NCBI GenBank assembly: GCA_944386715.1
Contig: CALXCD010000002.1
Coordinates: 12,869 to 76,868 of the forward strand
DNA: 64,000 bases
Reading direction: 5' to 3'
Source: an uncultured Clostridia bacterium
Lineage (GTDB): Bacteria; Bacillota; Clostridia; TANB77; CAG-508
This document shows, one piece after another, positions 1 to 56,943 of this stretch (its first letter is position 1; each line of letters starts with the position of its first letter). The notes below the pieces were generated by a model. It saw only the letters and a program-made list of their open reading frames with translations. It made no database searches and had not been told where the DNA came from. The position numbers were made by a program, and so were the translations under genes.

Positions 1-584
1 ATTTATCATTAGATGACAGCAAAAAGCTTTTAGATGTTAGTTCTAATGAAGATAACAGAAATTGTGAACGTGACCATGCTATTCTTACCTTGTTTTTAAA
101 TTGTGGTTTACGTTTGTCTGAATTAGTGGGAATTAATTTACAGGATATTAATTTTGAAGATTGTAAATTAAATGTTATTGGGAAGGGAAATAAAGAAAGA
201 ACGATTTATTTAAATAAGGCTTGTATGAAAGCAATTGCTGATTATTTAGAAGTTCGTCCTAAAGAAGGGGTAAAAAAAGATAAAAAACTTTCTGACAAAG
301 CCTTGTTTTTGAGTGAAAGAAAAGAAAGAATTGGTAGAAGAACGGTTCAGTATATAGTGGATAAAGAATTATCATTAGCTGGATTAGATACCAAAAGATA
401 TTCTGTTCACAAATTAAGACATACAGCAGCTACTTTAATGTATCAATATGGGAATGTCGATATTAGAGCATTGCAGGTTTTGCTTGGTCATGAAAGTATT
501 TCTACTACTGAAATTTATACACATGTGGATAATGAACAAGTTCGTAATGCGGTTGAAAAAAATCCTTTAGCTATGTTAGATTGA
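1..584 (+). CDS. Tyrosine recombinase, XerC/XerD (phage-integrase) family; 5' end lies outside the window
   Basis: Frame 3 is open from base 3 to the TGA at 582-584. The translation RDHAILTLFLNCGLRLSEL ... HKLRHTAATLMYQ ... LLGHESISTTEIYTH shows the R / HxxR / Y catalytic pattern. Confidence 0.85.
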   Translation, partial: LSLDDSKKLLDVSSNEDNRNCERDHAILTLFLNCGLRLSELVGINLQDINFEDCKLNVIGKGNKERTIYLNKACMKAIADYLEVRPKEGVKKDKKLSDKALFLSERKERIGRRTVQYIVDKELSLAGLDTKRYSVHKLRHTAATLMYQYGNVDIRALQVLLGHESISTTEIYTHVDNEQVRNAVEKNPLAMLD

Positions 585-793
585 TTGCCAAAGGGGACGT
601 TCCTTTTTGGCATATTTTTTCTTATTAGTTACTATTGAATAAATTTAAAAAGTAGGTATATATTCATATTTTTGGACAAAACATAGCTGGGGTTTAACAA
701 TCCGGGTCTTGTCTGCAAAATATGAATATATACCTACTTCTTTATGCTATTTATAAAACATGCCAAAAAGGAACGTCCCCTTTGGCAATCAAT
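580..793. repeat. Nested palindromic element, copy E0 of the conserved-core hairpin family
   Basis: A perfect 34-bp inverted repeat at 580-613 / 760-793 (ATTGATTGCCAAAGGGGACGTTCCTTTTTGGCAT) encloses an AT-rich stem (651-676 / 712-738). The loop of that stem is the family core at 677-711, in reverse orientation. Confidence 0.9.
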
Positions 794-3509: not shown

Positions 3510-3765
3510 TACAAAAAGCTCGCCCCAATATAAGGGCGAGTTTAATTCTCACGGTACCACCTTAATTATTATTTTTCAATAATATCTTAATTAGCTTTTA
3601 ACGCAGCTCACACGGATATCTTACTTATATTTTCAGAATATCAACTAAAAAAGCTACCTTCTGTTTACCTTTTATTTAAGAAGCTTCCAGCCTAAGACTT
3701 CTATTCTCTAGAATTAAGTATAAACATACTCCTCTTTTTTCTTGTTTTTTATTATTGTGCCTTAA
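3510..3765 (-). promoter_or_regulatory. T-box leader (Val specifier) of valS
   Basis: On the minus strand: an AGAGA motif in stem I, and a specifier loop AAAAGGUAAACAG with the GUA codon at 3668..3666. The T-box sequence AAGGUGGUACCGUGAG is at 3563..3548. The terminator CTCGCCC-N8-GGGCGAG plus U-run is at 3540..3519. Confidence 0.85.
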
Positions 3766-17990: not shown

Positions 17991-18410
17991 TTAAACTCTA
18001 TCCCTATTTAGGGGATGGCTTTTTTTGCGAGCTAGCTTTTTGTCAATGGCAATTAGCAAATATCCCAATGTAAGGATAAATATTGCTATTCCTATAATCC
18101 AATAAACAATTCCTTTTATGCCTAGCACTTTATAATCTAAAAAGAAATAGGCAAATTCTCTAGAACCACCAATACTGTAAAAAACACCTCCTTTTGCATG
18201 AAAAAGATAGACAAAACAAACATATGCACCTGGTAGTATTAGCCACAACCATGGGTAATATATTTTATAAGTACCTTTTTCATCCAAAATCAAGTAATCC
18301 AAAACGACAAGTACAGGAGACACTATGTGAACAAGTATATTTCCAATTGCTTTGCCTGTTATGCCTTCTGATACTTTGTACATAGGGAAATCATTTGGCA
18401 GTAATGCCAC
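17991..18410 (-). CDS. Integral membrane protein, function unknown, possibly 5'-truncated
   Basis: 139 aa with about four TM segments. Only 35 nt separate its start from the sortase stop, and there is no clear RBS. Confidence 0.5.
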   Translation of the reverse strand: MALLPNDFPMYKVSEGITGKAIGNILVHIVSPVLVVLDYLILDEKGTYKIYYPWLWLILPGAYVCFVYLFHAKGGVFYSIGGSREFAYFFLDYKVLGIKGIVYWIIGIAIFILTLGYLLIAIDKKLARKKSHPLNRDRV

Positions 18411-18445
18411 TAAATTTTCTGTCGGGAATTTACTGTCGCAAAATG

Positions 18446-19276
18446 CTACTTTACAGTAGAGCTTTTTTTACCAACAACTGCAAACCTACCATCTTCTACA
18501 TGATAAGAACAAGTGGATAAAGTAATTAATTGTTCTGGATATGTTGCAGTTGTATCTATGGTATACAAAGATGCTTTTTTCGCATTTTCTACGAATTCAT
18601 TATACTCTTTTTCTGTTGGTGCATTTACAAAATAATAATATCGAAATACATTTTTTTCTGATTTATAATATACCCTGGATTTAAAAGCAGAAATAATTTC
18701 ATATTCTGCATCTTCCTTTTCTGTGGTAAAACGAATAACAGGATGTTCTTGATAAAATTTTTTATTTTCATATTTTAACAATTCTTGAAACATGGTGCCA
18801 TTTTTTAAATTGTGCCCATACATTAATAAGTTACTACTTGGCACTTTCCAATCATAATCTTTTGTTAAAAAAATAGAACCATTTTTAGATTTTTCCTTTT
18901 TATAATTATGTGTCATATAATATTCATTATCCGTACCTTGTAATACAGGATAATTGATACTGGTCCCTTCTATTTCAATCCATCCAATTATATCTGAATT
19001 TTCTTCTTGAAGTGTTTTTACCTGAAGCATTCTTTCTGTTTCTTCTTTTGTATCCTCATTTGCTTCCATTTTTATATCTTCTTTTATTTCTTCTTGTATA
19101 TTTTCTGGTTTTTCCTCTATCTTTATGGTATTTAATAAATTGTTCTCTTCTTCCGCTTCTTTTTTTAATGAAAAAAAGTCTATGATATATATAGCAGATA
19201 TGATAATAAGGAAACTAAAAAACAGAAAGATTAAATAATATAATACTTTGTTTTTTGCCTTTAAATTCTTTTTCAT
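18446..19276 (-). CDS. srtB: Class B sortase
   Basis: N-terminal TM segment; IGWIEIEGTSINYPVLQG ... MYGHNLKNGTMF ... LITLSTCSY (catalytic Cys). Confidence 0.85.
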   Translation of the reverse strand: MKKNLKAKNKVLYYLIFLFFSFLIIISAIYIIDFFSLKKEAEEENNLLNTIKIEEKPENIQEEIKEDIKMEANEDTKEETERMLQVKTLQEENSDIIGWIEIEGTSINYPVLQGTDNEYYMTHNYKKEKSKNGSIFLTKDYDWKVPSSNLLMYGHNLKNGTMFQELLKYENKKFYQEHPVIRFTTEKEDAEYEIISAFKSRVYYKSEKNVFRYYYFVNAPTEKEYNEFVENAKKASLYTIDTTATYPEQLITLSTCSYHVEDGRFAVVGKKSSTVK

Positions 19277-19388
19277 TTAACTCTCCTAAGATTATAATAA
19301 GAATCTGGCTCAGGCATTAGCAATCAAAGATTACAGCCTAAGTACCCCAGAATCTTGTTATCTAAGATAATAAGGATAGACATTTTGT

Positions 19389-20519
19389 CTATCCTCTTCT
19401 ATCCTTTTTTTTCATTAAAATAATAACTGTTGTTGAGAATAACATTACTAAAGTAGCAATTCCTAAATAGTTTTCTATACCAGTTTTTGGGGTTTCGTCT
19501 TTTTCACCTTTTCCTGTTTCTGGTTCAGGTACTACAGGTTCTGGTTCTGTTTTTGCTTCAGAAATTTTTGCATAAATTGTTGTATCAGCATCTAACGGAT
19601 TATTAAAATCAAATGCATTTGTAAATCCTGCATCTGTAAAGAATCCCTCTACTACCATATTTCCTTGTAATGTTACATGTGATTTTAATAAATCTTCTGT
19701 TATTGTTTTACCTGCATCTACTACAATTTTATTTGTTTGGTCATTTGCAATTAATGTTATCATTACTTTTTGCGAATCTGTATTAGGTGTTGCCTTTTCT
19801 GGTAAAGCAGTTTCAGAGATAACATTATCAGCAGCATCTGTTAAAACAACTTTATCTCCTGTAACGGCAACTTTATTGGTTGTATTAGGTGTATTGGTTA
19901 TTGTGAATTCTGTAAGATGTCCATTTTCAGCAGCTCTAACTACATTTTCATTAGTATCAGATGTTAATACACCATTCATGACTAAACTTGGGTTATTGGT
20001 AGCAGCAGCTCCTTTGTCTATTTCAATACCATTATTAGCCCCTGTACCATTATATCCTAAATGTAAATTTCTTACTTCTACATTACCACCATTTGCAAGA
20101 ACTGCTCCATATTTAAATCCTGTAATAGAAACATTATCTAGTATTACAGTTGCACCATCATAAGATTGTACACCATATTTAGGTCCATTTTGTAAGTTTA
20201 TATTTTTTAGTGTCAATTTAGCAGCAGAGAATTGTGCTGTAAACATAGTTTGATTTCCTGATGTTGATGTCCAACTACTAGAACCTGTTATGGTATATCC
20301 ATTACCATCAATGGTCATTTCTTTAGCAATTACAATAGGTTTTGTTACTGTTATATTGCTTTGTAAAGTGACAGTCGCTCCTACATCTGCACTTGAAATT
20401 GCATTATTTAAAGATTCTTCATCTGTTACAGGTGTTTGAGCATTACTGAAATTTGGGATTACTAAAAATATAGTAAGTATTAATAAGAAAAACATGATTA
20501 ATTTTATTGTGTTTTTCAT
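19389..20519 (-). CDS. Sortase-anchored surface protein with a right-handed beta-helix region
   Basis: Signal peptide; repeats such as LTLKNINLQNG / VILDNVSITG / VEVRNLHLG. C-terminal sorting signal TPKTG + hydrophobic segment + KKKDRRG. Confidence 0.8.
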   Translation of the reverse strand: MKNTIKLIMFFLLILTIFLVIPNFSNAQTPVTDEESLNNAISSADVGATVTLQSNITVTKPIVIAKEMTIDGNGYTITGSSSWTSTSGNQTMFTAQFSAAKLTLKNINLQNGPKYGVQSYDGATVILDNVSITGFKYGAVLANGGNVEVRNLHLGYNGTGANNGIEIDKGAAATNNPSLVMNGVLTSDTNENVVRAAENGHLTEFTITNTPNTTNKVAVTGDKVVLTDAADNVISETALPEKATPNTDSQKVMITLIANDQTNKIVVDAGKTITEDLLKSHVTLQGNMVVEGFFTDAGFTNAFDFNNPLDADTTIYAKISEAKTEPEPVVPEPETGKGEKDETPKTGIENYLGIATLVMLFSTTVIILMKKKDRRG

Positions 20520-20663
20520 TTTTTCACCTCCTTATTAATTCTATTTTCTCTCTTTTTCTTCATTTTTATTTATTTTTTCTTAAATTTTTTAAATTAAATT
20601 TTTCCAGTATAAATAGTATTTTTAAGTGATATTTCTTATCACTTAAAAAAAGATTAGTTTTAT

Positions 20664-21635
20664 CTAACCTTTTTCAAATATGATTAAAGTTACACTGTTC
20701 CAAAGCATCTTCCAATAGAAATTTTTTGAATCTTTATTCTCATTTTCTAATTCTTCTTGTTTAGATGATTGTTCCACTTCCTGAACACTATTGGTTGTAG
20801 ATAATAGTTCTGGGTGTTCTTGATAAATTTTATTTAATTGGTTTCGATTTGCTTCTTGTTCTTCTTGATATGTTTTTTCTTCTTCTGCATTTCTTTTATA
20901 AACATCAACTGTATATATTTTTTGAGTTTCTCCTCCTTTTGAGGTAACTGTAATAGATATGGTATTGTTCCCTTCTTTTAAATCTTTATTTCCTATGACA
21001 TTAACTGTATTCTTATCGTTTTGTGGTACTGCTAATATTTTTATATCTTCTGTTGCATTAGAAATTTCTGCCTTATAATTAGTTATATTAGCATCAAATG
21101 GTGGTGTTAATAATACATTTTCTATCGCTAGGTTTTCTAAATTTGCATTTATTTCCTCCGCTTCTGTTGTACTTGTACTAACATTGTTATCTTCTCCAAT
21201 GGAAATCGTAACATTTTGAAACTCTGTTTCTATTTCATTTCCATTTGCATCATAAAATTCTCCATTTAATACAAAATTACAAATACCTTCTCCTATGGCT
21301 TTCCATTTAAAATTTGCAATAATGCCGTCTATTTCATTTAGTCCGCCAGTTTCATCATACCAAACTTTTGTTACTTTATTTCCGCTAATAGAAGTATTTT
21401 CATCTTGCTTAATATATTCCACTTTCGTATCATCAAAATAGATTTCTAGGTTATATGCAGCACATTTACTACCTTGTATCAAAATATTGATTTGGGTTTC
21501 CTCTTCTAATTTTATATTGTTTTTTGTAGTGGTTGCTGTTACTTTCGCACTTGCTGCAATACTATTAGAAAAAGAAAGTACAATAAAACTTAAGGTTAAT
21601 ACTATAATTTTATATTTTTTCATTTTAAAATTCAT
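20664..21635 (-). CDS. Cohesin-like + cadherin-like beta-sandwich surface protein
   Basis: Signal peptide. The N-terminal module (QINILIQGSKCAAYNLEIYFDDTKVEY...) is cohesin-like. The middle segment NLAIENVLLTPPFDANITNYKAEI...YTVDVYK is a cadherin-like beta-sandwich. The start could be 21635 or 21623. Confidence 0.7.
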   Translation of the reverse strand: MNFKMKKYKIIVLTLSFIVLSFSNSIAASAKVTATTTKNNIKLEEETQINILIQGSKCAAYNLEIYFDDTKVEYIKQDENTSISGNKVTKVWYDETGGLNEIDGIIANFKWKAIGEGICNFVLNGEFYDANGNEIETEFQNVTISIGEDNNVSTSTTEAEEINANLENLAIENVLLTPPFDANITNYKAEISNATEDIKILAVPQNDKNTVNVIGNKDLKEGNNTISITVTSKGGETQKIYTVDVYKRNAEEEKTYQEEQEANRNQLNKIYQEHPELLSTTNSVQEVEQSSKQEELENENKDSKNFYWKMLWNSVTLIIFEKG

Positions 21636-21708
21636 TCCTTTCTTACTTTGCTCTAAACACATACATTGATTTTTGTTGGAATTCATAATTGTCTTATTAT
21701 GATATTAG

Positions 21709-21797
21709 AAAATCTGATATATAGCTATTTGAAAATCAAGACCCAGATTGTTACACCCCAGCTATGTTTTGATTAAAAATAGCTATATATCAGGTTT
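21709..21797. repeat. Conserved-core hairpin, copy E1
   Basis: Stem AAAATCTGATATATAGCTATTT.. / ..AAATAGCTATATATCAGGTTTT, with the core at 21737-21771. Confidence 0.9.
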
Positions 21798-21821
21798 TTA
21801 TTAATTGTTATTAATATTATT

Positions 21822-21980
21822 GTTGCAATTCACAGCCGTTTTATATAATATTAGAAAAGCCTGATATATAGATATTTGAAAATCAAGACCCGGATTGTTA
21901 CGCCCCAGCTATGTTTTGATTAAAAATAGCTATATATCAGGCTTTTCTGAATTATTAACTTATTTACTGTGAATTGTAAC
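21822..21980. repeat. Conserved-core hairpin with an outer GTTRCAATTCACAG inverted repeat, copy E2
   Basis: Outer IR GTTGCAATTCACAG (21822-21835) / CTGTGAATTGTAAC (21967-21980), inner hairpin 21853-21948, core 21884-21918. Confidence 0.9.
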
Positions 21981-22007
21981 ATATTATTCTTTGCAAACTA
22001 TTCTTTT

Positions 22008-24270
22008 TTATTGCTCTATTGTTTTTAGCCCCAAAATATGTCTTTGTATTAGTAATAAATCAACAGATGTTGGTTTCTTTCCATTTTTATTGATATTTCC
22101 GGCCTTTTGGTAAATAGGTTCTAGGAATTGAAGTTCTAGAATATGTCTTTGTAAAACTAATAAATCCACACTATTTATTCTTCCATCTCCATTGACATCT
22201 CCATATAAAATAAATTCATAACTTTTTAATAAATTTTCGTTTTCTTTTATTTGTAGTTTACAGTTGGTTCCTACTTTATCTTCATTTGACAAAGCTTCAT
22301 TTTTACTATTTACGATTTCTGTTTCTAAATTGGTTATGATATTTTTCTTTATTTCTGAAACCGTATTGTTGTTGTCAGGAATTCCTGTTATATAGATTTC
22401 TTGATGTTTTAGTGGTTCTTGAAAAATAATTTCATTTTCCCCTAAATTTCTTGTTACAATAACATGACATTCTGTTTGGATATTATTATTTTCTTCTGAA
22501 ATAACTTGTATTTTGCTATTTCCTTCTATGAGAGCTGTAATTATTCCATTTTCATTTATTGTAAGCACATCCTCATTTTCTACTTTATATAGGATATTAG
22601 GGTTATCCGCATCTTCTGGTTGTACTTTAGCATTTAAAGAATAAGTTTCTCCCACAGAAAGATAAATTTCGCTTTCTTCTAATTCTATTCCTGTTACTTT
22701 ACTTGTTACCTGAATAGATATTGTTCCCTTTACATCGCTACCTTCTGCTTTTGCTGTAATAACAGCTGTTCCTGCACGTAGTGCTGTGATATTCCCTAAA
22801 TTATCTACCATGACAATAGAAGAATCACTAGAAGACCATTGTATTTTATTATCCTTTGCTTCTACTGGAAGGATTTCTATCTCTATTTTCGCCTTTTCCC
22901 CTTTAGAAATTATTGGATTGTCTATTTTTAAATGGATTTGTTCAATTGGCATAATAGGAGCGGTTTCTGTTACATAGTTTTGAAAAATATATCCAATGAT
23001 TCCATTTTCTAATTTTACTTTGTCCCATTTTTCTCCATTTTGAATACCTTTTCCTATTCTTGTCATTTTATCCCATTGATTTACTTGTGTAATGACCTCA
23101 TAAGAGGTACTTGGACCTGTCCTGATATTCACTTTTGAGCCATTAGAATATACAGTTGTATTATCTGTTTGATAATCTGATTCTAAAATATTAGGATTGC
23201 TTGTTGCAATCTCAGGCATATTATTGTAAATAGGAATAATAAAGTGCATTGGGGAATCTATTAATCCATTATTTTTATATCCTTGATAAATCGATTTTGA
23301 TTCACTATATGGTGCTAAAACATTTGTCATGTATTGATGCCAAAATAGTTCTCCTCCTTTTGTATCTGTTACATGAAATTTTTGAAAATAAACTGTATTT
23401 TGTCCTACATTGATATAACTAGAACCAATAAAAATTCCTCCACCTGTAATAGCTTTTTCTTTATTATCCCATGGAATTAGGTATTTATTTTTTGTTTCTT
23501 GACTAGCACCTTTTCCATCTCTTGCATATTTTAATCCATTGATAATCGCTCCCATTGGCTCTGCTGAACTTGTAGCACCAATATTATAAAAATTATATAA
23601 TCCCTTAAATCCTTCTACTGTTCCGCTAATAGAACTGTGAGATAAGAATGGTCCTACTTCTTGTTTGATACGGGATGCTAAATGATAAGGGCTTACCTTG
23701 GAGGTAATTGCTGCTTTTAATATTAAATCAGCATAAGTTTCTTCCATATTGTAATTATTTCCGGTTGCTATCCAGATAGCTTACTTTTTGCCTATAAAAT
23801 TCTGTTCCATATAATATTTTTTCAATTCCTTCTATTTGACTCATATTACTATCATAAGACAATGTCTCAAATTGAAAAATTCTAACTTCATTTAAAAAGT
23901 TTCTTGGGTCCATACAATATTCTACTGCTTTTTTGGATGCATCTACCCATCCAGCATCTACTTCTACATTATATTCTCCTGGTTTTGTATTTTTCCAATT
24001 ATCGGAATAGTTTTTAGGTACTAAATTTTTTCCAAATATGTTTTCTTGTTCTATTACATAATTCCAATCCAAATTCGTATATAGGGCTGTAAAACTCCAA
24101 TTAGGATGTTTGTTTTTTAATTCTTGCAAATAAGGTTGATAGGTACTCGGAAAGATTTCAATATCCTTACTTTGCTTTTCAGAGGCATGTGTAAAAAACA
24201 TCATACTGAAAAACAAGATGACTAATACACTACATAGAATAAAATATTTGTATTTTTGTAAAAATTTCAT
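22008..24270 (-). CDS. Secreted N-acetylglucosaminidase (GH73-type) with SH3-like, two Big_2-like modules and a C-terminal type-I dockerin; split by an apparent frameshift
   Basis: ORF 23755-24270 carries the signal peptide and N-domain. ORF 22008-23747 carries the catalytic region (VSPYHLASRIKQE), the Ig-like repeats and the dockerin DVNGDGRINSVDLLVLQRHIL / NKNGKKPTSVDLLLIQRHIL. The ORFs are 7 nt apart in different frames. Confidence 0.8.
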
Positions 24271-24920
24271 TTTTGTTCATATCCTTCCTCAGGACTTGCT
24301 TTTACAATAATTCTTTCTTTGGAATCTTTTGTACAAGTGATTAATGTGGTTTCTATTTTTCCATTTGTTTTTTGTGATAAACATTTTGTCTGTTCTGGAA
24401 AAACTGTATAAATATCATTTACTTTATACTCAATTTTTCCATTTTCATTATCAGAAATAAATAGGGTGTCTCCTATTTTTAATTTATATAAGTTTTTAAA
24501 CATATTGTTGTTTTGAAAATTATGTCCGACTACACAAAAATTTCCTATTTCATTTGGTTCAGTTCCCCAGAATTTAACAACTGATACTTGCAAAGCTTGT
24601 TCTGAATAATTTTTTAAAATATAGGTTTCCAGTTGAATGGTTGGAATTTCTAATTTCGCAATGACATCATATCCTTTCCATTCTTTTGGTACTTCACTTT
24701 CTAAAGGATGTTTTGCATTTTGTAGTAGCATTTCTTTTGTGGATATTTTTGTATCTTCTATTGTAGTATTTGTCTTACTTACCTGTATATTTTCTTTTAG
24801 ACTTTCACTTCTATTTTGTATCTTTTTTTCTTCATAAATATTCCATATTATCATTATCAAAATTCCGAGTAGTATTGTTAACAAAGTAATACTTATTACT
24901 AAGCGAACTTTTTTTGTCAT
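24267..24920 (-). CDS. Sortase (class A/D-like)
   Basis: N-terminal TM segment; IPTIQLETYIL ... VVGHNFQNNNMF ... TLITCTKD (TLxTC catalytic motif). Confidence 0.85.
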   Translation of the reverse strand: MTKKVRLVISITLLTILLGILIMIIWNIYEEKKIQNRSESLKENIQVSKTNTTIEDTKISTKEMLLQNAKHPLESEVPKEWKGYDVIAKLEIPTIQLETYILKNYSEQALQVSVVKFWGTEPNEIGNFCVVGHNFQNNNMFKNLYKLKIGDTLFISDNENGKIEYKVNDIYTVFPEQTKCLSQKTNGKIETTLITCTKDSKERIIVKASPEEGYEQK

Positions 24921-24984
24921 TTGCTTTTCCTCCTCGTGCTTTCTAGTTACAACTTTCTTTTTATTATATATTAAAGTTAGATTA

Positions 24985-25075
24985 AAAAACCTGATATATA
25001 GCTATTTGAAAATCAAGACCCGGATTGTTAAGCACCAGCTATGTTTTGATTAAAAATAGCTATATATTAGGTTTT
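24985..25075. repeat. Conserved-core hairpin, copy E3
   Basis: Stem AAAAACCTGATATATAGCTATTT.. / ..AAATAGCTATATATTAGGTTTTT, with the core at 25014-25048. A degenerate outer motif CTTAGTGAATTAGTAAC lies at about 25092-25108. Confidence 0.9.
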
Positions 25076-25128
25076 TATAAATTGTTAGTATCTTAGTGAA
25101 TTAGTAACGTTTTCTAAAAATTATGTGT

Positions 25129-26220
25129 TTATTTTTGTTTGTTTTTTGCTTTTTGGTTAAAATACCATATAGATATGACTAATAGTATTATCATAAATGC
25201 TATTGGAAGATAAGTGTTAATACCTGTTTTTGGTAATTGAGCTGGCAATTGTTCTTCTTCTTCATTTTCTGGTGTCATTTCTACTTCTGGAGTAGTTGGT
25301 GTTTCTTCAGGTAGCGGAACTGTTGTTTCTTCATTTTCGCCCGGATTTGTGTTTTCTGGTGGTGTAGGTGTTGTTGCAGTTTCTAATACTGTAAATTGGA
25401 ATGTTTCTTCTGCAATAACGTTATCAGAGTTATCTCTATCAATTAATTTTAAAGTAATGCTATAATCTCCTGCTTCACTAAAGGTCGCATTTACATTTAA
25501 AACTTGAGAAACATCTTTTCCTCCAATTTTATACCCTTGCGCATCTCCCCATCCACTTTGTATAATATCATGGTCTAATTGTGCTTGATCTTTTCCTATT
25601 AATGTTACATTTCCTGTTCCTGGCGTTGTTGCTTCTGCAATAAGTCTTGCATGCTCATAGTATTTCCCCATTGGTGAAGAATAAGATAATGTCATTTCTT
25701 TTGCTTCCCCTTTAATGATTTCCCCTGTATGCTCTAATTTTAATGTATAATCAATATATTCTGGTTCCACTGTTACATTTTTGACAATAGGTATGGTAAT
25801 GTCATCATAACTAACAGAGGCATCTGCATTTGCTAAACCTTCTGCTGTTACACTGAATTCAGTTGGATTTGATGTCGTGATATCTGCTTTTGCTCTAAAT
25901 GTTACACTCATATTTGTTCTAGGACTGGTTCCTCCTGTTGAATCATAAAATGTTACTCTTACTTTTGTAGATGTATCATTGGCAGTTCCTCCTTCTGCTG
26001 AAACATATTCAAAGATGTTATTATCATAAGCAATATCAAATGTATAAGCACCTAAATCTTGTCCGAATTCTATCATTACTTTTACTTCTTCTCCTGGACG
26101 TACTGTTGTTTTATCTGTTTGTATATCAATTCCTCCTAATGGTGCTGCATAACTTTTGATGGAAAATACAGTGAATAATAAAATAAGTAATATGGATATT
26201 ATGCTAATTATTTTTTTCAT
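25129..26220 (-). CDS. Sortase-anchored cohesin-domain surface protein
   Basis: Start MKKIISIISILL with AAGGAGGAA upstream. Cohesin-like module: VRPGEEVKVMIEFGQDLGAYTFDIAYDNNIFEYVSAEGG...VTFYDSTGG...VTFRAK. C-terminal LPKTG + TM segment + KAKNKQK. Confidence 0.8.
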   Translation of the reverse strand: MKKIISIISILLILLFTVFSIKSYAAPLGGIDIQTDKTTVRPGEEVKVMIEFGQDLGAYTFDIAYDNNIFEYVSAEGGTANDTSTKVRVTFYDSTGGTSPRTNMSVTFRAKADITTSNPTEFSVTAEGLANADASVSYDDITIPIVKNVTVEPEYIDYTLKLEHTGEIIKGEAKEMTLSYSSPMGKYYEHARLIAEATTPGTGNVTLIGKDQAQLDHDIIQSGWGDAQGYKIGGKDVSQVLNVNATFSEAGDYSITLKLIDRDNSDNVIAEETFQFTVLETATTPTPPENTNPGENEETTVPLPEETPTTPEVEMTPENEEEEQLPAQLPKTGINTYLPIAFMIILLVISIWYFNQKAKNKQK

Positions 26221-26357
26221 AAAAAATTTCCTCCTTTTTTGTTTTTCATTTCTAGTATGAGAATTTTTTTTATTTTGTATGTTAGCAAATTTTTTCTTTT
26301 TTTCTATTTTTTGGAATAAAATTGGCATGATAAAAAACTTTTGTCATAAAAAGAAAA

Positions 26358-26379
26358 CCTCTCACTTTCAAGTGAGAGG
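26358..26379 (-). terminator. Rho-independent terminator
   Basis: On the minus strand, CCTCTCACT-TGAA-AGTGAGAGG is followed by TTTTCTTTTT, 23 nt after the upstream stop. Confidence 0.75.
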
Positions 26380-26401
26380 AAAAACTTTTTTACTCGAAAA
26401 A

Positions 26402-34155: not shown

Positions 34156-34350
34156 TATTGCCAAGGGGACGTTCCTTTTTGGCAACTTTTATATCTTACT
34201 TTATTCAAAAAAGTTAATATATTAATATTGGCAGACAAAGACCCGGATTGTTATGCCACAGTTAAGTTTTTGTCTAAAATATTAATATATTAACTTTTAT
34301 TTTAAAAATATAAGTTGCCAAAAAGGAACGTCCCCTTGGCAATATTAGCT
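34150..34350. repeat. Nested palindromic element, copy E4 of the conserved-core hairpin family
   Basis: A perfect 38-bp inverted repeat at 34150-34187 / 34313-34350 (AGCTAATATTGCCAAGGGGACGTTCCTTTTTGGCAACT). Inner stem 34213-34294, core 34236-34272. Confidence 0.9.
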
Positions 34351-34388
34351 ATAAAAAAAGTAGCTGATTAAATATCGCTACTTTCTTT

Positions 34389-34601
34389 TTATGCAAGACC
34401 GTATTTTTTCTTAAATTTATCTGCTCTACCTCCAACTGTTTCTTGTCTTAGATTTCCTGTCCAGAATGGATGACATTTAGAACATACGTCTACTTTTATA
34501 TCTTTTTTTGTTGAACCAACTTCTAATACATTTCCACAAGCACATGTGATAGTTGTTTGGTTGTAATTTGGATGTATTCCTTCTTTCATTTTCAAGTTCA
34601 C
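34389..34601 (-). CDS. rpmE: 50S ribosomal protein L31 (Zn-ribbon type A)
   Basis: MKEGIHPNY ... CACGN ... [10 protein letters not shown] ... [10 protein letters not shown]. Confidence 0.95.
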
Positions 34602-54254: not shown

Positions 54255-54377
54255 ATTTATCCCTCCTTATATAAAAAAATATACCTAGATATCCGATGTA
54301 TTTTTGTACATTGTATATCTAGGTATTGTTTTTGTCAATAATTTTCTAAAAAATTATAAAAAAATCTTGCAATATTT

Positions 54378-54536
54378 GTTACTATTCACAGTAAATAAGT
54401 TAATAATTCAGAAAAGCCTGATATATAGATATTTGAAAATCAAGACCCGGATTGTTACGCCCCAGATATGTTTTGATTAAAAATAGCTATATATCAGGCT
54501 TTTTTAATATTGTATAAAACAGCTGTGAATTGTAAC
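54378..54536. repeat. Conserved-core hairpin with the outer GTTAC(T/A)ATTCACAG inverted repeat, copy E5 (hairpin flipped relative to flanks)
   Basis: Outer IR 54378-54391 / 54523-54536, inner hairpin 54410-54505, core 54441-54475. Confidence 0.9.
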
Positions 54537-56814: not shown

Positions 56815-56943
56815 ATTGGTTCCAGGTTTGGATGCCAATTTTTTGGCATCCAAACCTGGAACCAATGCCAACTTTTTGGCATTTCAAACCTGGAACCAAT
56901 GCCAACTTTTTGGCATTTCAAACCTGGAACCAATGCCAACTTT
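56815..56943. repeat. Block of four 33-34-bp units (one inverted, three direct) between rfbA and rfbC
   Basis: The unit is TTGGCAT(C/T)(C/T)AAACCTGGAACCAATGCCAACTTT, at 56843-56875, 56876-56909 and 56910-43. The inverted copy at 56815-56838 forms a 24-bp perfect hairpin with 56843-56866. Confidence 0.92.

Follow-up and report, generated by a model that had tools for sequence, protein, structure and literature searches.

Repetitive extragenic palindromic (REP) sequences and REPINs are found in Pseudomonas and Enterobacteria, where they are mobilised by REP-associated tyrosine transposases (RAYTs), while the BIME-1/RIP elements and the Correia elements carry a conserved integration host factor (IHF) site at their centre, between inverted ends. 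To our knowledge, Firmicutes lack IHF. The pneumococcal SPRITE, BOX and RUP repeats are described in published accounts as small, AT-rich, tightly folding sequences that occur in clusters and insert into one another, SPRITE being rho-independent-terminator-like with AAAA/TTTT ends (PMC3049150, PMC10969869). [quoted passage not shown] Template switching between inverted repeats has been associated with arm homogenisation, spacer inversion and arm expansion (PMC8604942, PMC13100816, PMC8794818, PMC7202029). Here, we describe E0, a 214-bp palindromic element lying between a XerC/XerD-like tyrosine recombinase gene (xer) and valS in a stretch of 64,000 nt from an uncultured Clostridia bacterium (contig CALXCD010000002.1, positions 12,869 to 76,868), hereafter the window. 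Our analysis favours, with a rough probability of 0.6, the reading of E0 as a composite palindromic repeat of the REPIN/MITE/SPRITE kind that is non-coding and non-autonomous, varies among strains, has the layout H-X-H* and does not involve the recombinase. The hairpin at its core belongs to a family of previously undescribed small palindromic DNA repeats of uncultured gut Clostridia, and E0 itself falls outside every named family.

The outer inverted repeat of E0 (577–618/755–796) extends over 42 nt with 95 % complementarity, and its perfect core (580–613/760–793) measures 34 bp. Each arm contains the module H, a hairpin in its own right (28 nt, 12-bp stem, −16 kcal/mol), which occurs exactly on the plus strand and, as H*, on the minus strand (0 expected by chance, 100 shuffles). 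The two H copies enclose a 148-bp spacer, X, without an open reading frame (ORF), within which an inner inverted repeat (638–672/717–751; 35 nt, 86 %) surrounds ~44 nt and forms what we term the core hairpin. When 570–800 was folded, each strand gave a single long hairpin (−107.3 kcal/mol with z = −16.8 and −106.7 kcal/mol with z = −15.4), and none of 200 shuffles folded as stably. The features of the junction are as follows.

580–613, plus strand: left outer arm, perfect 34-bp repeat (577–618 at 95 %); holds the xer stop codon TGA at 582–584
585–612, plus strand: H module TTGCCAAAGGGGACGTTCCTTTTTGGCA, followed by TATTTTTTCT (613–622); consensus intrinsic terminator for the xer transcript
613–637, unstranded: left spacer of X, with an inverted-repeat partner for its first 6 nt only
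638–672, unstranded: left arm of the inner inverted repeat (core hairpin stem), perfect part 650–672
673–716, unstranded: apical 44-bp segment; strains L128, L130, L131 and L132 carry its exact reverse complement here, with the flanks unturned
677–710, minus strand: the loop motif that defines the family, AAGACCCGGATTGTTAAACCCCAGCTATGTTTTG; most of its first 14 nt are invariant, and at the others no more than 4 of 83 copies deviate
717–751, unstranded: right arm of the inner inverted repeat, from the inverted-repeat search
752–760, unstranded: right spacer of X; on the valS strand, the T-rich tail TGTTTTATAA
761–788, minus strand: H* module, exact reverse complement of H; with the tail, consensus intrinsic terminator for the valS transcript
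760–793, minus strand: right outer arm, perfect 34 bp, its last base directly before the valS stop codon
794–3439, minus strand: valS (881 aa from ATG; stop codon 794–796; T-box leader at 3529–3751)
3–584, plus strand: 3′ part of the XerC/XerD-like tyrosine recombinase gene; not part of the element and present in all strains with or without E0

An earlier note on this DNA, written from the letters alone, had described the perfect 34-bp outer repeat, an internally palindromic module in its arms, a left arm that takes in the recombinase TGA and a right arm that reaches the base before the valS stop, and the potential for a nested hairpin or cruciform. Sequence reading, the repeat search, the ORF ends and the folds bear out each of these points, the 35-nt inner repeat lying within the outer arms in a fold of about −107 kcal/mol, and the label 'copy E0' is justified by five further copies of the inner hairpin in the window. 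The T-box leader upstream of valS (3529–3751, minus strand) scored 94.8 bits against a gathering score of 93 and was the only Rfam match at gathering score in the whole window.

Comparison of the xer-valS junction among related genomes, a check that the earlier note had proposed, revealed the presence/absence variation it had in mind. Ten strain-level contigs were retrieved via an identical ribosomal protein L32. Four carry just 33 nt between the stop codons, corresponding to a solo H with a closing stem (TAA ATTGA TTGCCAAAGGGGtCGTTCCTTTTGGCAA TCAAT; −24 kcal/mol), and another four (L128, L130, L131 and L132) carry E0 with the 44-bp apex inverted, the spacers, stems and outer arms remaining unturned. 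One contig has a different X, of the type found at 34.2 kb in the window, between the same H and H*, and one resembles BRZ_RS bin5, where the site is occupied by another repeat family. In BRZ_RS bin5 itself (L047; nearest species, 94 % nucleotide identity), the same two genes are separated by a different, 88-nt spacer derived from another hairpin repeat. The arrangement seen in the window is reproduced exactly in contigs of several chicken-gut metagenomes.

Two further observations concern this site. The valS-xer site of L133 (8238–8430) holds a partly decayed core copy with several loop changes, related to the 34.2-kb copy and placed between the same H and H*; the site was either filled independently a second time, or its insert was replaced through recombination between H-bearing loci. 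In L128 and L131, both stem ends of the left H (CTGCCAAGGGGG...TTGGCAG) have changed together (T..A/T to C..G) without involvement of the right arm, a compensatory pair inside the small hairpin.

Searches with blastn, nhmmer and a covariance model detected five additional core copies in the window (21706–21801, 21852–21949, 24983–25078, 34205–34299 and 54408–54506), giving six copies of this ~100-nt hairpin repeat, or ~1 per 10 kb. All share the apical sequence AAGACCCGGATTGTTAyrCCCCAGmTATGTTTTG, which reads on the plus strand in every copy except E0, where it reads on the minus strand, and their stems differ yet stay complementary. When one genome per species was searched for exact matches to the loop pattern, 46 loci were returned, all but one chance match being in ~10 bins of uncultured gut Clostridia from rabbit and other sample series. 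Profile searches then brought the collection to 84 core copies in the window and loci L001–L048, with up to five copies per 8-kb locus.

The conservation of these copies is concentrated in the loop. An alignment of 41 copies gave a consensus hairpin of 31 pairs, 15 of which show compensatory double changes, and its invariant columns cluster in the apex. Across 26 stem pairs, 95 % of cells are paired compared with 79 % in shuffles (0/500 shuffles as good), and pairing falls to 36–52 % when the stem partners are slid by 1–3 columns. Most of the first 14 loop positions are unchanged in 83/83 copies, and the most variable of them differ in no more than 4; this also holds for copies outside the pattern selection. 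Mean ungapped pairwise identity is 0.91 in the loop vs ~0.55 in the arms, a difference partly biased by copy fetching, as 48 of the 84 copies were obtained by the exact loop pattern and part of the loop conservation is due to that.

All copies are intergenic, the 68 that could be classified lying between co-directional (33), divergent (22) or convergent (13) genes. Relative to gene direction in the co-directional contexts, the loop points the same way 13 times and the opposite way 20 times, indicating no strand bias. On the loop-sense strand, G-U-compatible stem mismatches are not in excess over A-C mismatches (48 vs 104, a single invariant G.T being set aside). Rfam matches at E ≤ 10 around E0 and the 21.9-kb copy were restricted to generic, sub-threshold long hairpins of the microRNA-precursor type. 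A phage origin was considered and dropped, the loop pattern being unmatched in 2.9 million viral contigs. With all copies intergenic and no strand bias, RNA-strand preference or viral match, the family is best regarded as an interspersed repeat at the level of DNA and not as a gene for a strand-specific RNA.

The least ordinary feature of the family is that the conserved core is shared by elements with unrelated ends. The same core was found within at least three unrelated kinds of outer ends, such as H in E0 and AGGATAATGGTT... in a rabbit bin, and some copies have no outer ends and stand alone (L007, L010 and L021). An automated search for outer repeats and duplications returned mostly spurious AT-rich matches; hence, boundaries were read by hand in the clear cases. 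The remaining copies in the window are arranged as follows.

34158–34342, plus strand: sister H-X-H* element, with H at 34158–34185, core at 34205–34299, H* at 34315–34342 and the flanking palindrome AGCTAATA/TATTAGCT
21822–21980, plus strand: MITE holding a core hairpin (21852–21949), with terminal repeats GTTGCAATTCACAG/CTGTGAATTGTAAC and the 8-bp duplication ATATTATT at 21814–21821 and 21981–21988
21706–21801: partial tandem copy beside the 21.9-kb MITE
54378–54536, plus strand: MITE of the same type holding a core hairpin (54408–54506), with the 8-bp duplication CAATATTT/TAATATTT
24983–25078, plus strand: core hairpin whose outer ends are degenerate; 10 strain contigs all carry it, in one orientation

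The 34.2-kb locus repeats the pattern seen at E0. Among strains with an identical upstream protein, L171, L175 and L179 carry AGCTAATA-H-TATTAGCT, while the window, L172 and L173 carry the filled allele AGCTAATA-H-X-H*-TATTAGCT. At both H-bearing loci, the solo H is identical to the left-hand H of filled alleles, and H* reads as the exact reverse complement of that sequence. The exact upstream protein of this locus is carried by 16 contigs in public assemblies, all shorter than 2 kb, and six of the ten shown end inside H or the core (L170, L173, L174 and L176–L178), so that short-read assemblies of this organism are broken up by the repeats.

Other copies are classical MITEs. Terminal inverted repeats of the GTTACAATTCAG type bound elements of 139–159 bp at 21.9 kb, at 54.4 kb and in many copies of BRZ_PK bin13, and 8-bp direct duplications surround at least six of them (e.g. 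CGACATTC in L033, ATAAAATA in L012 and TAATTGTA in L036, each present twice); it is on account of these terminal repeats and target duplications that we class the GTTACAATTCAG subfamily as such. A 65-nt version of this element without the core occurs at L019:328–392. Where the window has tandem copies at 21.7 and 21.9 kb, the related species (L136) has 24 nt only. At 54.4 kb, the apex is flipped in L137 and L139 relative to the window and L145, with the crossover within the outer 13–17 bp of the stem, a part that differs from copy to copy; a 96-bp partial deletion with CAAA microhomology is present in seven other strain contigs.

Some neighbouring features of these copies are recorded here. 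Three of the window's six core copies lie in a surface/cellulosome-like gene cluster (~18400–26400; sortases, cohesin, dockerin/Big_2 and a cadherin-like protein). In the related species L136, the corresponding cluster directly adjoins rpmF; in the window, and in L127–L135 where the contigs reach, an asparagine synthase gene lies beside a DUF5662 gene and rpmF instead, and ~14–16 kb of other genes separate rpmF from the cluster in the window. A 47-nt near-perfect palindrome (AATACCTAGATATAC...GGATATCTAGGTAT; 54271–54338) just upstream of a PadR-family regulator gene gave a weak chance match to the core model (E = 0.03) and is probably the operator of that gene.

The module H is rare in the window, with two loci in 64 kb, and recurs in part elsewhere. 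The string GGGGACGTTCCTTTT(N)GGCA forms the apex of hairpins with different, covarying stems in other gut Clostridia (e.g. CGCCCAAA...TTTGGGCA in L149), and in Agathobacter and other Lachnospiraceae, it sits at the tip of inverted-repeat elements that carry 19-nt tandem repeats in a subterminal position. H is therefore a repeat module in its own right, and more widely distributed. In the Agathobacter and other Lachnospiraceae bins (L155:2487–2603, L163, L166, L160 and L169), the tips read (GT)GGGGACGTTCCTTTTGGCAC, equal to the apex plus 3′ arm of H, and are followed by the 19-nt arrays (nnnnnnCGCCCTTTGGCA); no transposase was seen, and in L167, two such ends surround an ordinary gene for a 205-aa membrane protein. 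The window also holds a tandem array at 56832–56943 (with related sequence from ~56810), in which a 34-nt unit, ATGCCAACTTTTTGGCATTTCAAACCTGGAACCA, is repeated 3.3 times; every unit contains a TGCCAA...TTGGCA hairpin whose stem is also that of H, and this repeat family fills the valS-xer spacer in the related species (L047 and L136).

The earlier note had also expected E0 to act as a strong bidirectional terminator. A consensus terminator scan of E0 returned exactly two sites (0.3 expected), each an H hairpin with a T-run, on opposite strands and each facing its own gene, so that the sequence side of the expectation holds; on the transcript side, RNA contigs at E0 are too sparse for the mapping of ends. 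The sister copy at 34.2 kb apparently marks the 3′ end of rpmE. In metatranscriptome X25, a 291-nt unitig (34224–34514, depth 310) runs from the highly expressed rpmE through a weak terminator and H* into the core, and a copy-specific 36-nt apex unitig has a depth of 278; immediately past the hairpin, the depth is ~3, and the upstream gene stands at 8.5. On the rpmE strand, the core stem is followed by UUUUUU, which together with these depths suggests that the long hairpin is the 3′ end of the rpmE transcript. In X25, the transcript seems to pass its own short terminator-like hairpin and H* and to end only at the core plus U6 (34355–34390 and 34196–34310, minus strand); if this is correct, readthrough would give a ribosomal protein mRNA a repeat-derived 3′ untranslated region (UTR) of ~190 nt. 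Other copies of the family also occur in RNA contigs at high depth. One RNA contig of run X25 joins 761–1089 (valS plus H*) to the reverse complement of 617–652, as if the 148-bp X were inverted. We do not count this as evidence for inversion of the whole of X, as the 34-bp arms exceed the 31-nt assembly word and an assembly ambiguity is possible.

How such an element would arise and be maintained can be sketched as follows. Members of the family would spread by transposition in trans, through an enzyme that we did not find, and template switching at replication between the inverted arms would keep the arms identical, occasionally flip the spacer between them and extend the arms into the flanking DNA, in E0 as far as both stop codons. 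We infer that template switching is the reason why the E0 arms are identical at 34/34 positions, reach into the stop codons and enclose an apex that flips. Three elements have private variants common to both arms, namely E0 (CCAAAGGGG), the copy at 34.2 kb (CCAAGGGG) and L009 of BRZ_RS bin5 (CCAAGGTGGACATTCTT), whereas diverged arms occur in L008, in L030 and in the left arm of L128 and L131. The short direct repeats TTTGGCA at the hairpin base may permit collapse to a solo H. The solo-H and H-X-H* geometries are compatible with two routes, namely (a) collapse of H-X-H* via slippage between the 7-nt repeats (T)TTGGCA that end H and H* and (b) insertion of X next to a terminator already in place, after which H would be copied in inverted form. 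For the host, E0 would be passive, a face-to-face pair of intrinsic terminators and a stable 3′-end hairpin for the converging transcripts.

Several observations weigh against this account. Neither E0 nor the 34.2-kb copy has a direct target duplication, their flanks being inverted instead (ATTGA/TCAAT; AGCTAATA/TATTAGCT), and E0 is therefore not demonstrably a product of transposition. We also considered 'inverted target duplication' as a general signature of insertion and rejected it, as the H-X-H* copies of L009 and L030 have no palindromic flanks. Template switching alone does not account for the far stronger conservation of the loop, relative to the stems, among species with only ~60 % identity in the valS C-terminal fragment. 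Among the sparse RNA contigs over E0, there is no sign of termination, and one runs at least 36 nt past H*; the X25 evidence from the sister copy consists of assembled contigs without strand or local depth from one sample and is an indication rather than a mapping. Finally, no transposase or other mobilising enzyme was found near core copies in ~370 kb of fetched loci. An all-vs-all comparison of ORFs of at least 150 aa across the 46 loci and the window revealed no multicopy ORF family (the sole cluster of three is VanW-like and not a transposase), and pairs of GTTACAATTCA ends 0.5–3.5 kb apart enclose ordinary genes and no parent insertion sequence.

The contrast between loop and stem may reflect a different kind of spread, in which the hairpins are substrates of an enzyme acting on single-stranded DNA (a RAYT/IS200-type HUH tyrosine transposase or a new one) that reads the invariant loop on the folded strand, the loop being kept because a copy whose loop is damaged can no longer be copied. 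The far higher conservation of the loop with pairing retained in the stem, the recurrence of one core in at least three unrelated kinds of ends and alone, as if the core were the unit selected for propagation, and the conserved apex (GGGGACGTTCC) and covarying stem of H in several Clostridia all point this way, and REPINs, with REP singlets as their remnants, provide a precedent (PMC3116915, PMC3337134). We nevertheless consider this explanation unlikely. No RAYT (Y1 HUH) gene recurs or was seen in the 8-kb loci around the repeat copies, the apex flips between strands at no apparent cost and without orientation bias, the 8-bp target duplications of one subfamily are typical of DDE transposases and are not made by HUH single-strand transposition, and the 48/84 ascertainment accounts for part of the loop conservation. 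As it concerns spread, it could coexist with the composite-repeat reading. An extension of the idea, which we regard as quite improbable, would make both conserved apices (that of H, GGGGACGTTCC, and the 34-nt loop, AAGACCCGGATTGT...) recognition structures of an undescribed hairpin-reading DNA enzyme of gut Clostridia that inserts or copies at hairpins with inverted target duplications, turning a solo H into H-X-H*; such an enzyme would move DNA in a way that neither DDE cut-and-paste nor known HUH single-strand transposition does. The loop could instead be conserved in RNA, with the core hairpin acting as a multicopy small RNA or 3′-UTR element whose C-rich loop (CCC...CCCC) pairs with G-rich targets or binds a protein. 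Strong stem covariation, unpaired C-runs in a conserved loop and high-depth transcription in metatranscriptomes are in keeping with this; the lack of orientation bias (13 vs 20), the inversion of the apex between strains at two loci, the absence of a G-U-compatible excess (48 vs 104) and the absence of an Rfam family are not, and covariation in DNA palindromes can arise through arm homogenisation without selection on RNA (PMC8794818). We judge a functional structured RNA to be distinctly unlikely.

The position of E0 beside a recombinase gene had led the earlier note to propose hairpin-recognising recombination of the attC or Xer/IMEX type, with E0 as a folded-DNA substrate of the adjacent enzyme. 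That the site is polymorphic, that a XerC/XerD-like gene adjoins it and that the 28-nt H has an 11-6-11-like quasi-palindromic layout about a palindromic ACGT centre would suit such a role, but junction geometry and gene neighbourhood speak against it, and we consider it extremely unlikely. The 331-aa recombinase scored 235 bits against an equivalog cut-off of 335 and 92 against 265 for the integron-integrase model, and no cassette array is present. It adjoins valS and the same upstream glycosidase gene in 10/10 strain contigs, including the four with a solo H, and with the same neighbours throughout, it does not travel with the element; no other core copy lies beside a recombinase, and the remaining 83 have no recurrent neighbour gene. 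The adjacent recombinase is thus independent of E0. Site-specific integration at H was likewise rejected: the modules it leaves behind would be direct repeats or hybrids, and what is seen on the right is an exact reverse complement of the left module. The flips might also reflect a phase-variable invertible switch (inverton), turned by a dedicated invertase and controlling neighbouring genes, as both orientations occur among strains at two loci with flanks otherwise identical or near-identical, and the segment lies between inverted repeats with a tyrosine recombinase next to E0. However, no sample shows both orientations (among the contigs listed for X1, X2 and X4, exact E0 matches give the window orientation only, and contigs drop rare variants), the 25-kb copy has one orientation in 10 strains and the 44-bp segment contains no convincing promoter, only 9-of-12 consensus matches. 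The crossovers moreover fall in non-conserved stem, which argues for homology or template switching rather than a specific recombinase site. We regard an inverton as very unlikely, and retain the composite palindromic repeat as our reading of E0.

Read in this way, the family adds a well-delimited set of small palindromic repeats to low-GC Clostridia without cultured members from chicken, rabbit and other animal guts. Its loci provide a natural experiment in inverted-repeat evolution, with empty, filled, replaced, flipped and partly deleted alleles among close strains. The repeats supply stop codons and terminators to flanking genes and are usable as strain markers, and the near-invariant 34-nt loop shared across unrelated ends is a concrete handle for finding a protein that reads it.

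Among described systems, REPINs appear to be the closest analogues, with the pneumococcal SPRITE, BOX and RUP repeats also close and MITEs with a conserved central site third. Like REPINs, E0 consists of two short inverted imperfect palindromes (the 28-nt H) around a spacer, forms a long hairpin and is extragenic and multicopy, and the solo-H alleles at both H-bearing loci are analogous to the REP singlets seen as remnants (PMC3116915, PMC3337134). It differs in that the 148-bp spacer is itself a repeat with a nearly invariant loop and variable arms, whereas REPIN arms are conserved around a short variable loop. In addition, no RAYT and no GTAG-type 5′ motif were identified, the host phylum is different (low-GC Clostridia) and H is confined to two loci in 64 kb. 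The core hairpin resembles SPRITE in its AAAAG...CTTTT ends and U-run. There is no sequence relationship to SPRITE, BOX or RUP, the core is not enriched between converging genes (13/68), and an invariant 34-nt loop, apex flips and inverted duplication of a terminator module are not among the features reported in the available portions of those accounts.

By the definition of a MITE, E0 is short (214 bp, below ~500 bp), non-coding and a member of an intergenic multicopy family, and it has terminal inverted repeats (34-bp perfect arms, the sister copies being of the GTTACAATTCAG type); direct target duplications are confined to the GTTACAATTCAG subfamily and are absent from E0 and the 34.2-kb copy. 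The Correia/NEMIS elements of Neisseria and BIME-1/RIP of E. coli are 100–200 bp in length and have terminal inverted repeats; transcribed together with neighbouring genes, they form long hairpins and can terminate transcription. The central conserved motif seen here is off the IHF consensus, and no parent insertion sequence was found in the fetched loci. With attC sites and IMEX (integrative mobile elements exploiting Xer), E0 has in common an imperfect palindrome able to act as a folded single strand and, here, an adjoining Xer-like gene. It differs from attC in having no R/L core sites, visible GTTRRRY ends, cassette array or integron integrase and from Xer/dif-IMEX in being bounded by inverted exact copies of H, with an empty allele that is the left copy and not a recombinant of both. 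All three signatures of template-switch evolution are found (arms identical at 34/34, arms extending into stop codons and flipped apices; PMC8604942, PMC13100816, PMC7202029), although template switching is a mutational process rather than an element family and covers maintenance and dynamics, not dispersal or the conserved loop. Finally, as in an intrinsic terminator, a hairpin with a U-run stands at the 3′ end of a gene, and in E0, it does so on both strands.

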